Below, piece by piece: positions 4,274 to 10,647 of a stretch of DNA of 10,880 nucleotides. The translations under genes and the position numbers were made by a program. Origin of the DNA: a virus; the UHGV virus genome UHGV-0354908; one strand, given 5' to 3'. How positions within the stretch are numbered: position 1 is the first letter of the stretch; each line of letters opens with the position of its first letter. The notes under the pieces were generated by a model, which saw only the letters and a list, made by a program, of their open reading frames with translations, was not told the DNA's origin and searched no databases.

Positions 4274-4675
4274 TTATATGGCTGTCGGCCAGTCAATATC
4301 AGGCGCCTTGGAAGTATCAACCCGGCTTAAAAGCACGCGATATTTTTTCAGTGTAGTTAACTGTGTTCTTTCTTCATCTGTCGCCATGTCTAGGTCGATC
4401 GCATCCTGAAGTATGGAGATCGTCTGGCTTGCTTCGGCTATCAGGTTGGCCTTTTGCTGTTCTGCCTGATTAATTAAATCCTCTTTTGGTACCTCTGGCG
4501 CCGGAGGAAAGGTGAATACCCCGTCTTTATATGTTCCGCCAATCCCGTAAAGGTTATCACCGCACCTTACTGCCTGAGTACCTTCAGGTGGTTCCCATTC
4601 TGTGACGCCATCCCAAACGATAACATTCACAATATTTCCATCACCATCAATTACTGCGTAGTCTTCAGCTTCCAT
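4274..4675 (-). CDS. Tail fibre assembly protein (Tfa chaperone)
   Basis: The C-terminus (...LSRVDTSKAPDIDWPTAI) matches the conserved C-terminal motif of phage tail-fibre assembly proteins. The ATG at 4673-4675 overlaps the tail-fibre stop (TAATG). The track start at 4690 is a TTG and is less likely. Confidence 0.82.
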   Translation of the reverse strand: MEAEDYAVIDGDGNIVNVIVWDGVTEWEPPEGTQAVRCGDNLYGIGGTYKDGVFTFPPAPEVPKEDLINQAEQQKANLIAEASQTISILQDAIDLDMATDEERTQLTTLKKYRVLLSRVDTSKAPDIDWPTAI

Positions 4676-5646
4676 TATGCATACTCCCAAACAATCACAA
4701 TACCCATAGATCCGTTACCACCTGCCAGAGCAGTATTAGGCGTGCCTGTTGACGTCGCAACAGGTCCACCGCCAGCGCCATAACCTGCACCATCAATACC
4801 ATTGGCACCATAAGCAGTAATGAATCCTCCCGCGCCAAAGCGTGACGATCCACCGGGAGAAGAAATCGAAACTCCAGCACTCAAAGCAATGGACGATGCT
4901 GCGCCTTCACCGGGAGTTCCGACAATTACACCCGATCCTGAAGGCGAAGCTGAAACAGTTGCCGCCACAGTTGAGAAGGGGAAAGAGCCTGACGGCCCGG
5001 CTGGTTTGCCAGAATCTCCCCCAGCAGCTGAAACAAGATTGCCGAAAGACGAAGTGCCACCGCTGCTTGCGTAAGGATTAGATGTAGTGCCACCCATCCC
5101 TCCTGAGCCAACAATTACGTTTACGCCGCTAAAACCAGAAGTAAACTGAGCTTTTGCATACGAGCCAGCACCTCCGGCACCACCAACGGCTACCTGGCCA
5201 GGTCCTGCGGCGCGCGCTCCAGCGCCGCCACCGCCGCCGCCAACCATTTCAACGATTACTTTTTTCGTGCCGGCTGTAGGCGTGTAGGTTCCGCTTGTGT
5301 AGAAAGTCTGCACGTTCAGCAGGCGGCCAACGTATCCGCTCTCATCTCCCAAATCAAGGTTTTCGAGAGCCGTTTTCACCGTGCCATCCGATTTGATATC
5401 GCCAAACGGATTTTTGCGGCTTAACAGCAGCGCACGAAGCGCGGTAAGCAACTGGTCGTGCCGCCCTTTCTCCAGGCTGGCACCGGAGGCCTCCACAACG
5501 CTGCAAAGCTCCTCCTGCAACATGTCAAAGTAGTCATCATCCAGATCGGTGGCAGGTGTGCCGGTCTGGGGGTTACCACGGGTAAAACCGTTCTTACCCG
5601 CGCCGAACTTATCCTTCTGCGCGGTTTTCGTGTCTATACGATGCAT
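4675..5646 (-). CDS. Tail fibre protein (conserved N-terminal anchor domain, Gly/Ser/Ala-rich distal domain)
   Basis: 323 aa. The N-terminal ~110 aa ([47 protein letters not shown]...) resemble the conserved proximal domain of enterobacterial prophage side tail fibres. The rest is glycine-rich low-complexity sequence. A GGAG lies 7 nt upstream of the ATG. Confidence 0.85.
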
Positions 5647-5649
5647 GGA

Positions 5650-7698: not shown

Positions 7699-8243
7699 GC
7701 CTCCATCGCTTTATCCGGTTTGTCGGTGTTACTGCCCTGACCGTTCTCTCTGTGACGATGCCCGTTATAGGCAAGCCGCATCGCTGACATGGTGGTACCG
7801 CCGGAGTCGCACAGGTCTTTCACCTGTCCGGTCACTTCCAGGTCCATTTCAAAACGTGCTCTGGGCGCATTGCGAAACGTGATCGTTTTACCTGCACCGT
7901 CCACCACGATCCCCTCCCGGGTCAGCGTCACAGACTGCCCCTGATCGTCATAGACAGCCACCTCACCCGTCTGCAGCCCTTTCAGGCGGTAGCGCCGGTC
8001 CGACACCGTAACAACCACCGCATGAGAACGGTCGCCATCCGGAAACAACACCACCGCTTCCGCACCGCTGTTTGCCCTTGCGGTAAAACCGTAGGGTTCA
8101 AGATGTTCAACCCCGGCTTTGGGTTCACCGGCAATCAGGGACACATCCACGGTCTGACATTTCGTGGCGGCACTGATGCTTTTCACCACTGCCCGCCCAA
8201 TCAGGCCGAGGAGTTGTCGCTGCATGGCTTCAATCGTCCTCAT
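7695..8243 (-). CDS. Baseplate assembly protein V / spike (Mu gp45-like)
   Basis: 182 aa (MRTIEAMQRQLLGLIGRAVV...), with the size and sequence character of the phage baseplate V family. Its ATG overlaps the stop of the upstream gene (TGATG). Confidence 0.82.
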   Translation of the reverse strand: MRTIEAMQRQLLGLIGRAVVKSISAATKCQTVDVSLIAGEPKAGVEHLEPYGFTARANSGAEAVVLFPDGDRSHAVVVTVSDRRYRLKGLQTGEVAVYDDQGQSVTLTREGIVVDGAGKTITFRNAPRARFEMDLEVTGQVKDLCDSGGTTMSAMRLAYNGHRHRENGQGSNTDKPDKAMEA

Positions 8244-9322
8244 CAGAACGGGTCCTCCTGTACTCTGGCTTTTTTCTTTTTCCGCGCGCCGGGGGCTTCG
8301 GGTTCAGGCAGATAAGCATCAGGTGGGCCGACACGGATTTCCGTCAGGGTGCCGTTCTGGTCCTGAGTAAACGTGACTTCCGAAACAAGCAGTTCGGTAT
8401 TGTCGAAACCACAGACCGGATCAAAGACAATCACCCGCTGGTTGGGCTGCCACAGCGTACCGTTACCCTGTCGCCAGCCCTGCACCACATAGGTGGTTTC
8501 ATCCGTCCGCGCCGCCCGTTGCCGGGCTTCAAAGTCAGCACGCGCAATACAGCCTGCCCCCGTAGCCTGCCCTGTCTGCCTGATATACATCGGACGGTAA
8601 CGGGCAATAAATGCGTCCTCTGTGCGGGCCCGCAGCGCGGTGGTGGTGGCCTCACCGAAATCATCGTCGTTTCCGGCACGCTGCCCCGCCACCTGGTAAA
8701 CAGAAAACCGCTCCCGGATACTCTTCTCCGTATCGCAGGAAAGGATGTTTTCCCCGAGTACCAGCGCAGTATGTGCCCGCGTTGAGCCAATACCGCCAAT
8801 CACCAGCCTGCCGTGCGGGTCGTCGTAAGCCAGTGCCTGCTGCTGACCGAGTATTTTGTTGATTACCTCAATCACCGTTTCACCGTGATCAGGCTGAACA
8901 TCAGGAATAACACCCGACGGCGCACCGCTGTTCACCACCTCAATGCCGAAAGGCGCAGCAAGCGCCTGCGCAATCTGCACCAGCGAGCGTCCGTTAAACT
9001 GTGTCGGTTCGGCTGCACAGTCAATCAGGTCAGCCGTCAGACTACGTCCGGCAATACCGGTGCTGACCGAACGGGCATCGTAACGAACGGGCGTCGCCTC
9101 CACCCAGCCGGTGATCACCAGCTCATCACCAATCAGCACTTCCACTTTTGAACCGTTTTTAATGCGCGGCTGAAGCGTGGTGATACCCTCATCTCCCGGC
9201 CACTGGCGGGTGATCTCCACACTGAAATCCCGCGCCAGCCGTTCAATACCGGCACCGATGCGCACCGATGTCCAGCCATTCCACTCCCGGCCATTTACCC
9301 GTAGCGTGACATTGTCGTTCAT
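8243..9322 (-). CDS. Mu gpP (gp44)-like tail/baseplate hub protein
   Basis: 359 aa (MNDNVTLRVNGREWNGWTSVRIG...) immediately downstream of the gpN-like gene with an ATGA overlap. This is the conserved Mu gene order. Confidence 0.82.
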   Translation of the reverse strand: MNDNVTLRVNGREWNGWTSVRIGAGIERLARDFSVEITRQWPGDEGITTLQPRIKNGSKVEVLIGDELVITGWVEATPVRYDARSVSTGIAGRSLTADLIDCAAEPTQFNGRSLVQIAQALAAPFGIEVVNSGAPSGVIPDVQPDHGETVIEVINKILGQQQALAYDDPHGRLVIGGIGSTRAHTALVLGENILSCDTEKSIRERFSVYQVAGQRAGNDDDFGEATTTALRARTEDAFIARYRPMYIRQTGQATGAGCIARADFEARQRAARTDETTYVVQGWRQGNGTLWQPNQRVIVFDPVCGFDNTELLVSEVTFTQDQNGTLTEIRVGPPDAYLPEPEAPGARKKKKARVQEDPF

Positions 9323-10647
9323 TGCACTGGCACCTTCAGAGGGATCACCGGCACAAAGCCGGGATGCGTAATGGCATTACGCCGGATAATGTCCGCGTCA
9401 CGCGCCGCGTTATCAAACCAGGTCGCCGCCAGCACCAGCGCGGGTAAAACCTCATCCGGTGTGCGCTGAATGATCCGTGCAGACTGTTCAAGGCGCGTGT
9501 TGATATCCGCATTCAGATCTGCTTTCACCCGGCGCAGCGCCAGAAACAGCGCATCACTGGTTGTACGGGACAACTCCTTATCAATTGCCGTATTCAGTGT
9601 GTCGCGAATGTCAGTCAGTTCTTCCCACGTCGGCAGGTCAACCTTGTTTTTCACCGCCGGTGCATTGTTCAGTGCCGGATGCGTGACGGAAGGCCAGCCA
9701 GTGCTCTGCGCAGGTGTTGTAGCCTGCCCCACTGAGGAATTCTGCATCACCGCGGAAGTTGTTGGCGCAGGCAATCGGGTGACGGCATACGCCGCTTCGC
9801 TGATTGCGGTCGTACGAAGGGTGCTGGCAACCACGTTACGCTGCTGCGTCGCCGTGGCGGTGGTTTTACTGTCCGTTTTCCAGACGCCGCGCGGTTGCAG
9901 ATCGCTGCCGAGGCTGACACCGGAAAGCGTTTTGATCATGGTGACCAGGTCGCTGGCGTTACCATAAAGGCGTTTCCCGGTACGCCACATTTTCTGCACC
10001 TGCTCAACGAAATTTTTGCCTGACGATGGCGGCGGCAGAAGTACCGAGATATCCCCCTGCAACAGCCTGGCGGCATCCGATACGGCAGAATCCACCACTT
10101 TCATCGCATCAGAAACATACCCAAGCATTGTGCTGACATTACCAACGACGTCGTTCTGCACGAAATCCGCCACGCCATCGATACTGAAACCGCTGAAGCT
10201 GTCACTGATGCAGTCATCCAGTGCAGAACAGGATGACATCAGCGTCTGCGCCGTCGCCGCACCTGATGTGGGGTAAGAGAGTTCTCCTGCTTCGACAAAC
10301 TTCAGGTCAAAACGGACAATACGCCCTTCACTCTTCGATGTGCTGACCCGAACTTCCCCGTCAACACAGACTTTCAGCTCACCGTAAGTCGGATGGACAA
10401 GCGTGCCGGGACCGGGTTTATTCAGCGCGTCAATCAGGCGATCGCGCTGGTCAAAGCAGTCATCTCCCACCACATAAGCCGTGATGGACGGGCGGAAAGT
10501 GATTTTCCCCAGGTCCTCGGTATAGGGTTTGTCGCGGTTCGGGTATTCGTGCGTTTCCACACGACGGCCGGTTCCCGCACTTTCTTCTTCAACCTTAAAC
10601 GGCACACCGCGAAATGACGCGTCCTGAAGTCTGTCTTTCCACGTCAT
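9319..10647 (-). CDS. Mu gpN (gp43)-like DNA circulation protein (tail protein)
   Basis: 442 aa. The N-terminus (MTWKDRLQDASFRGVPFKVEEE...THEYPNRDKPYTEDLG) matches the conserved N-terminal domain of the Mu DNA circulation protein. A GGAG lies 5 nt upstream of the ATG at 10645-10647. Confidence 0.85.
   Translation of the reverse strand: MTWKDRLQDASFRGVPFKVEEESAGTGRRVETHEYPNRDKPYTEDLGKITFRPSITAYVVGDDCFDQRDRLIDALNKPGPGTLVHPTYGELKVCVDGEVRVSTSKSEGRIVRFDLKFVEAGELSYPTSGAATAQTLMSSCSALDDCISDSFSGFSIDGVADFVQNDVVGNVSTMLGYVSDAMKVVDSAVSDAARLLQGDISVLLPPPSSGKNFVEQVQKMWRTGKRLYGNASDLVTMIKTLSGVSLGSDLQPRGVWKTDSKTTATATQQRNVVASTLRTTAISEAAYAVTRLPAPTTSAVMQNSSVGQATTPAQSTGWPSVTHPALNNAPAVKNKVDLPTWEELTDIRDTLNTAIDKELSRTTSDALFLALRRVKADLNADINTRLEQSARIIQRTPDEVLPALVLAATWFDNAARDADIIRRNAITHPGFVPVIPLKVPVQ

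Follow-up and report, generated by a model that had tools for sequence, protein, structure and literature searches.

The gene block and its protein families

The stretch of DNA analysed here, UHGV virus genome UHGV-0354908, is 10,880 nucleotides (nt) long and is called the window throughout. Its minus strand carries, at 4274-10647, a block of eight open reading frames (ORFs) for baseplate proteins of the phage Mu type, a tail fibre and the tail-fibre assembly chaperone Tfa (Table 1). When the ORFs were re-derived from the sequence, all eight were found to begin with ATG, to consist of whole codons and to have one terminal stop, which bears out an initial annotation of this DNA that had described the module as free of frameshifts and internal stops. 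The eight minus-strand genes, the junction motifs that it had quoted and a largest gap of 3 nt were all found again at the same positions. Every one of the eight proteins exceeded its Pfam gathering threshold, the fibre narrowly (Gly_rich_2 at residues 119-319, 26.1 bits against a threshold of 24.3). Judged from their sequences, the eight ORFs are real genes and not chance ORFs, and the antisense ORFs at 7282-7740 and 9470-9967 were treated as by-products of G+C-rich coding sequence.

The initial annotation had read the block as following the Mu order N-P-gp45-gp46-gp47-gp48-tail fibre-Tfa, and this reading was upheld by Pfam, by BLASTP matches to Mup43-Mup50 and by the structures in PDB 9KI1 and 1WRU. 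Protein N matched Pfam DNA_circ_N (E 6.5e-34), PHROG 184 (baseplate hub), Mup43 (43% identity over 89 of the 442 amino acids (aa) of N, BLASTP) and, across residues 10-433, chain 0 of PDB 9KI1, which is Mu protein N (E 3.5e-14). Protein P contains the Pfam domains GpP-like_1st, Gp44-like_2nd and GpP_4th, has 35% full-length identity to Mup44 and matched both Mu gp44 (PDB 1WRU/9KI1, E 1.9e-50) and the 43-kDa tail protein of MuSo2 (3CDD, E 3.9e-52). The gp45 homologue matched Pfam Phage_Mu_Gp45, NCBIfam phage_P2_V, Mup45 (30% identity) and chain V of PDB 9KI1 (E 1.1e-14). The three remaining baseplate proteins were assigned to Pfam GP46 (E 6e-33; 41% identity to Mup46), Baseplate_J (E 1.7e-53; 31% full-length identity to Mup47) and Phage_Mu_Gp48 (E 7.8e-27; 29% identity to Mup48). 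Profile searches of each protein against phage structural families, proposed as a check in the initial annotation, thus assigned all eight as it had claimed, and the PHROGs agreed with Pfam in returning baseplate hub, wedge, tail-fibre and fibre-assembly families.

The BLASTP matches to Mup43-Mup50 (proteins from NC_000929) were colinear, with 29-51% identity over the aligned stretches, and for the six baseplate proteins the E values against Mu lay between 7e-14 and 2e-57. Each of gp43 (N), gp44 (P), gp45, gp46, gp47 and gp48 therefore has a sequence homologue in the block, and the order on the one strand, N-P-45-46-47-48-fibre-chaperone, is that of the Mu annotation. In the Mu baseplate, solved by cryo-EM, gp43 forms the hexameric tube initiator, gp44 the trimeric hub and gp45 the trimeric spike; each of the six wedges is built from a single gp46, a single gp48 and two copies of gp47, and the fibres, six trimers, dock with their N-termini on a loop of gp48 (PMC11915804). 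By homology, the block would encode a complete Mu-type 'simple' baseplate, the subunit roles being carried over from Mu. That these proteins would assemble into a baseplate in virions is inferred from their 98-100% identity to those of SfV, a characterised myophage. A baseplate of the P2 or T4 type is scarcely credible and the P2 type was rejected: gp45 also matches the NCBIfam P2 gpV subfamily and gp47 belongs to the broad Baseplate_J family, common to P2 gpJ, but the Mu-specific DNA_circ_N, GpP domains, Phage_Mu_Gp45, GP46 and Phage_Mu_Gp48 all scored above their cut-offs and the BLASTP and PDB matches are to Mu proteins in Mu order.

Table 1. Features of the window, the eight genes of the block first
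Feature	Position	Strand	Remarks
N / gp43 homologue; tail-tube initiator, annotated 'DNA circularization protein'	9319-10647	-	442 aa
P / gp44 homologue; trimeric baseplate hub	8243-9322	-	359 aa
gp45 homologue; central spike / puncturing device	7695-8243	-	182 aa
gp46 homologue; baseplate wedge protein 1	7270-7698	-	142 aa (141 aa from ATG 7695)
gp47 homologue; baseplate J-like wedge protein 2	6225-7283	-	352 aa
gp48 homologue; wedge protein 3, fibre-docking subunit	5650-6234	-	194 aa
Tail fibre	4675-5646	-	323 aa
Tfa, tail-fibre assembly chaperone	4274-4675	-	133 aa
G+C-rich 9-bp hairpin between the convergent stop codons of gtr(type) and Tfa	4248-4269		Terminator-like match on + strand
Insertion sequence (IS) of the IS903 family (IS5 family), terminal 70 nt	10661-10730		13 nt upstream of N start
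Interior of the same IS, transposase DDE region, inverted	10731-10880		Pfam DDE_Tnp_1
Inverted fragment of a second intS allele, adjoins cut integrase	1-175	-
IntS-type integrase (P4-family architecture), lacking first three codons and start	176-1324	+
gtrA	1488-1850	+	Pfam GtrA_DPMS_TM
gtrB	1847-2764	+	Pfam Glycos_transf_2
Type-specific glucosyltransferase, gtr(type)	2772-4244	+	Pfam Glucos_trans_II; GtrII-type domain

Relation to SfV and Mu, and the distal tail fibre

The closest characterised phages are the serotype-converting phages of the SfV type, named after SfV of Shigella flexneri. Local BLASTN gave 97.7% nucleotide identity between the window and SfV over 5345-10658, and a megablast search of phage genomes returned SfI, SfIV, SfV, SfII and several E. 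coli myophages at about 97-98% over 5345-10660. At the protein level (BLASTP) the identity to SfV was 99.3% for N (orf15), 99.4% for P (orf16), 99.5% for gp45 (orf17), 100% for gp46 (orf18), 98% for gp47 (orf19) and 99% for gp48 (orf20). The gene order of SfV orf15-orf22 is the same, its annotated overlaps are identical from the N/P junction to the gp48/fibre junction, and in both cases an int-gtrABX cassette converges on the tail-fibre end with a hairpin between the two operons. Since the SfV GenBank record (NC_003444) already carries the note 'similar to phage Mu N, P, GP45, GP46, GP47, GP48' and the SfV tail has been called Mu-like in the literature (PMC4542187), the architecture has been described before. 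The block is a known module, the distal-tail genes of an SfV-type temperate myophage, in which only the fibre tip and Tfa depart from SfV or Mu.

The homology to SfV is interrupted at two mosaic joints, at about 5345 and about 1366. Outside them the SfV fibre (orf21) has 216 aa and lacks the glycine-rich part, and its Tfa is only 40% identical; gtrA and gtrB are about 74% identical, and in the DNA comparison gtrV was unmatched by the type-specific gtr of the window. The homology begins at 1366, downstream of int, and an SfV-type integrase and attachment site were not found: SfV has its own integrase, in contrast to the IntS/HK620-type enzyme of the window, which in the relatives lies next to tRNA-Arg. 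SfV also has a tape-measure gene upstream of N, where the window has the IS. The pairing of a P4-type integrase and a gtr cassette with a Mu-like baseplate had been presented as the mosaic architecture of SfV-like phages; this holds for the baseplate, with its 97.7% nucleotide identity and same layout, and fails for the integrase, gtrA and gtrB, the fibre tip and Tfa.

With Mu the block shares the eight functions in the same order, together with the 10-nt overlap of gp47 and gp48 and the 4-nt overlap of gp45 and gp46. The Mu fibre is longer (504 aa against 323 aa), and Mu has its own head genes in place of the HK97-type head genes found in close relatives of the window. Mu is also transposable, whereas the relatives of the window lie at a tRNA site with a tyrosine integrase, pointing to site-specific integration. 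Only Mu has the invertible G segment with a second fibre/Tfa set and the Gin invertase. No second fibre/Tfa set and no invertase was found in the window, where the hairpin and the gtr operon follow Tfa, and an invertible fibre region resembling the Mu G segment, which would require an inverted second gene set or an invertase, was rejected.

The fibre is composed of two parts. Residues 1-101 form the SfV/Mu-type baseplate-attachment part and are 96% identical to SfV orf21. Residues 38-147 have 31% identity to Mu S over 116 aligned positions (E 5e-9, BLASTP against a small database), and the N-terminus matched Mu S in PDB 5YVQ/9KI1 with E 1.3e-3, weak but consistent. The distal part, about 220 residues (approximately 102-323), is glycine-rich and has no counterpart in SfV; PHROG tail-fibre families match the fibre, and the nearest phage relatives of this part are Klebsiella phage proteins, with about 44% identity. 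The full-length glycine-rich fibre was found in no sequenced phage isolate of the collection searched. Tfa matched Pfam Caudo_TAP (E 8.1e-30); its identity is 40% to SfV orf22 and, over 61 aa at the C-terminus of Mu U, 51%. A Caudo_TAP chaperone gene thus comes after a fibre whose N-terminus is homologous to Mu S. Modelling the fibre with AlphaFold2 from its single sequence gave an unusable structure (mean pLDDT 33.5, pTM 0.23). In the NCBI databases the fibre is named 'carbohydrate kinase' or 'glycine-rich domain-containing protein', and in E. coli MRSN346647 PGAP calls it a pseudogene fragment. The 'carbohydrate kinase' name looks like a misannotation that has been passed on from record to record.

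Klebsiella prophages are the main carriers of this variant of the fibre tip and Tfa, which is also present in some prophages of E. coli. The exchange relative to SfV is an ordinary swap of a host-range cassette, routine for tail fibres. A more specific proposal is that the glycine-rich tip and Tfa (4274 to about 5345) make up a receptor-binding cassette that would let an SfV-type myophage cross between Klebsiella and Escherichia. It is prompted by the finding, given below, of a nearly identical prophage in hosts with diverged chromosomal flanks, and we regard it as improbable.

Gene junctions, transcription and translation

The genes of the block are tightly packed, with a stop codon close to the next start at every junction: six overlaps and one gap. 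N and P overlap by 4 nt (ATGA at 9319-9322), P and gp45 by 1 nt (TGATG at 8241-8245), gp45 and gp46 by 4 nt (ATGA at 7695-7698, counted from the first ATG of gp46), gp46 and gp47 by 14 nt, gp47 and gp48 by 10 nt, and the fibre and Tfa by 1 nt (TAATG at 4673-4677). The sole gap, of 3 nt, separates gp48 from the fibre (5647-5649). Two starts need comment. The gp46 gene has two adjacent ATGs, and SfV and PGAP annotate the second, at 7695, which lies 3-4 nt from GGAGG, the first lying 0-1 nt from it. With the start at ATG 7695 the gp45/gp46 junction becomes a 1-nt TGATG overlap, which is still of the coupling type. The Tfa ORF is extendable to TTG 4690 in the ORF list, and the relatives use ATG 4675.

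A Shine-Dalgarno-like match, located within the upstream gene, precedes every start. In seven of eight cases the duplex with the anti-Shine-Dalgarno sequence was calculated at -5.5 to -10.3 kcal/mol, where the background averages -3.4 (sd 2.5); that of P is weak (-3.9 kcal/mol), and the spacings are long for gp47 and gp45. The junction pattern of +4, +1, +1, +14 (occasionally +11 or +8), +10 and a small gap recurs in relatives with 58-87% protein identity from Scandinavium, Kosakonia, Buttiauxella, Enterobacter and other Enterobacteriaceae. In that comparison the starts were picked heuristically, and two N-to-P values of about -1700 and -1800 nt, the locus L016 and a TTG start for Mu gp45 were left out as artefacts of ORF picking. 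A consensus scan found no sigma-70-like promoter match on the minus strand inside the block, and two terminator-like hairpins, both weak, on the same strand.

The Shine-Dalgarno-like matches, the conserved junction pattern and the lack of an internal promoter match make co-transcription with translational coupling a plausible and the simplest reading of the block in an intact phage. One late mRNA would then span the block, and ribosomes would re-initiate at each overlapping stop and start. Several points weigh against this reading. In Mu a separate C-dependent late transcript from the promoter P_P starts at gene P (PMC4461284, PMC2582627). The existence of P_P makes an internal promoter inside N conceivable here. 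The subunit stoichiometry, 3:6:12:18, is such that coupling alone could not set the expression ratios.

A further observation against one transcript comes from the relatives, in which the 60-nt spacer between the tape-measure protein gene (TMP) and N contains a terminator-like hairpin, CCCACTCCGGTGGG, followed by T6. The hairpin lies within 22473-22532 in MRSN346647 (L002) and within 11859-11903 in SfV (L001), inside a presumed single late operon, and is missing from the window. Its role may be attenuation or RNA stabilisation, or antitermination may allow read-through there.

At the other end of the block, the hairpin at 4248-4269 was calculated at -15.5 kcal/mol (z = -2.4) as minus-strand RNA, with no U-tract following; a weak T-run stands after it on the plus strand. 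SfV annotates a rho-independent terminator at the equivalent position. From its sequence and placement the hairpin is probably a shared transcription stop of the gtr and tail operons.

The insertion sequence and the state of the prophage

From 176 to 10660 the window is 99.7-99.95% identical to prophages inserted at tRNA-Arg/yfdC (E. coli MRSN346647, CP018206, and loci L005-L012), the glycine-rich fibre, Tfa and gtr genes included. The closest complete prophage is that of E. coli MRSN346647, with five mismatches over 10,485 nt. By exact look-ups of the proteins of the chromosomal flanks, the hosts of L005, L010, L011 and L012 were identified as K. pneumoniae and that of L009 as K. michiganensis/oxytoca. 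The chromosomal flanks of the Klebsiella loci are about 77% identical to those of E. coli, and a nearly identical prophage between such diverged flanks points to a very recent cross-genus spread of one prophage.

In most of these relatives N is preceded by the tape-measure, assembly-chaperone, tube and sheath genes, and in MRSN346647, read for 12 kb upstream, by HK97-type protease, capsid, portal and terminase genes as well. In the window, tape-measure, tube and sheath genes are absent from this place, and the homology to all relatives ends at 10660, where the IS903-family element begins. Its terminal part (10661-10730) matches the end of an IS of E. coli NT1F31 with 100% identity, and 10731-10880 is the reverse complement, at 100% identity, of positions 644-793 of L011, a K. 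pneumoniae metagenome scaffold. Alignment with MRSN346647 and SfV showed that the IS stands in place of the tape-measure gene and of the greater part of the 60-nt spacer between TMP and N; N keeps its GGAG Shine-Dalgarno sequence, and nothing else of the native upstream sequence is retained. The initial annotation had named missing or interrupted upstream structural genes as an outcome that would refute it, and in the window these genes are indeed cut off by the IS at 10661.

L011 has the same IS/N junction and carries the IS in full length. On the far side of this element, the adjoining 50 nt gave no match when compared with 12 kb of the intact prophage, and the 9-mers on its two sides differ, which means that it lacks a 9-bp target duplication. 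Both observations argue against a simple insertion. A 52-nt query taken from the L011 stretch beyond the IS had no match in complete E. coli genomes, and exact scans for the N/IS junction gave no matches in the genome, viral and metagenome contig collections. Among the relatives, all of which (MRSN346647 and L005-L012) carry a full-length integrase, the IS903 junction occurs in L011 only. In L010 (GCA_004368375.2), positions 1-520 hold a fragment of an IS3-family transposase (HTH_Tnp_1) upstream of the tail assembly chaperone gene. As L010 is cut by a different IS, this prophage has been struck by IS elements more than once.

The opposite end of the window is also altered. The integrase contains the Pfam domains Arm-DNA-bind_3, Phage_int_M and Phage_integrase, an architecture typical of P4-family integrases, and is 96% identical to the int products of HK620, CUS-3 and IME10. 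The first 9 nt of the gene are lost and an in-frame TAA stands at 173-175; in MRSN346647 intS starts 9 nt further upstream. Bases 1-175 are 95% complementary to positions 539-713 of the window, and three other E. coli genomes have an intS that matches them with 100% identity. No record was returned by an exact-protein look-up of the cut integrase (with ATG at 338), and an exact scan of viral contigs for the int junction gave no matches. The window has five private substitutions with respect to seven relatives, all in int (196, 223, 1234, 1240 and 1255), which suggests that a second int copy took part in recombination or was mixed in during assembly. No tRNA was found in the window by ARAGORN and hence no attL tRNA, and Rfam at gathering thresholds returned no match there.

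The gtr cassette lies next to the fibre/Tfa end and converges on it, as in SfV. The G+C content of the type-specific gtr is 36.8%, against 56.6% for the tail block. Its ORF is extendable to TTG 2682 inside gtrB, and the relatives annotate ATG 2772 (490 aa). The exact protein occurs on 493 contigs named for Enterobacteriaceae generally, and members of its protein cluster come from E. coli, Klebsiella and Citrobacter.

Taken jointly, these results are very probably best explained by an SfV-type baseplate block with a swapped fibre tip, severed by an IS and lying in a disabled prophage remnant. The last part, that the window belongs to a recently disabled remnant, is by itself a moderately likely reading. 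It is based on the IS, which stands 13 nt before the start of N and separates the block from the genes for tape measure, tube, sheath and head, and on the integrase without a start. In this window the block would be cut off from the late genes and their promoter, and a baseplate without tape measure, tube and sheath could not build a tail on its own. The block at 4274-10647 has no substitution with respect to L007, L008 or L011, so any truncation must be recent. That the severed, mutation-free block is still expressed is an improbable further reading. Certain features of the window itself speak against a remnant. The window stops 220 nt beyond N, and the sequence past the IS is out of view. 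At 175|176 and 10730|10731, both near the ends of the window, the sequence is joined bluntly and in inverted orientation, and neither junction occurred in any public collection searched. Among the complete E. coli genomes none spans either window end. The window-specific junctions could be assembly chimeras instead of real rearrangements.

The strongest competing explanation is accordingly that the block belongs to a complete, inducible SfV-like prophage, the odd ends being chimeric or the IS a simple insertion. This we hold to be rather unlikely, but it has points in its favour: none of the eight ORFs is damaged or differs from its counterpart in apparently complete prophages, the specific junctions lie within 175 and 150 nt of the ends and are unseen elsewhere, and the confinement of the five private single-nucleotide polymorphisms to int would fit two mixed int alleles. 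However, the junction 10660|10661 was found independently in L011, where something other than the tape-measure gene lies on the far side and a target-site duplication is lacking; the native TMP-N spacer would be lost and a late transcript interrupted even by a simple insertion; and the integrase of the window has no start codon. A remnant severed by the IS therefore remains the preferred reading. Domestication of the block by the host, for instance as a tailocin component or to supply other phages with fibres, is very improbable. It would account for the lack of substitutions against three relatives in the face of IS and integrase damage, and the R-type syringacins of Pseudomonas are co-opted tails of the Mu/SfV type (PMC4542187), but zero substitutions equally fit a very recent insertion and the same block is found in complete prophages at 99.7-99.95% identity. 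The tailocin version was rejected, as the window has no sheath, tube or tape-measure gene and a baseplate alone can neither contract nor kill.

A related situation is known from Shigella flexneri, in which gtrI lies in an IS-flanked cryptic prophage remnant (PMC4924310). Common to the S. flexneri gtr remnants and the window are a gtr cassette and a damaged prophage, the damage here including an insertion sequence. The window differs in that its baseplate-fibre block is intact and mutation-free and in that its likely host is Klebsiella or E. coli, not Shigella.

The significance of these findings is slight and lies mostly in correct annotation. Descriptions of the Mu-like tail of SfV-type phages go back to the publication of the SfV genome, and a cryo-EM structure of the Mu baseplate is now available. 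Intact ORFs are not equivalent to an intact prophage: the IS next to N and the integrase without a start point to a defective element, which affects the question of continued mobility of the gtr O-antigen-modification cassette. The near-identical prophage of Klebsiella and E. coli is, in addition, a small example of very recent cross-genus phage spread.

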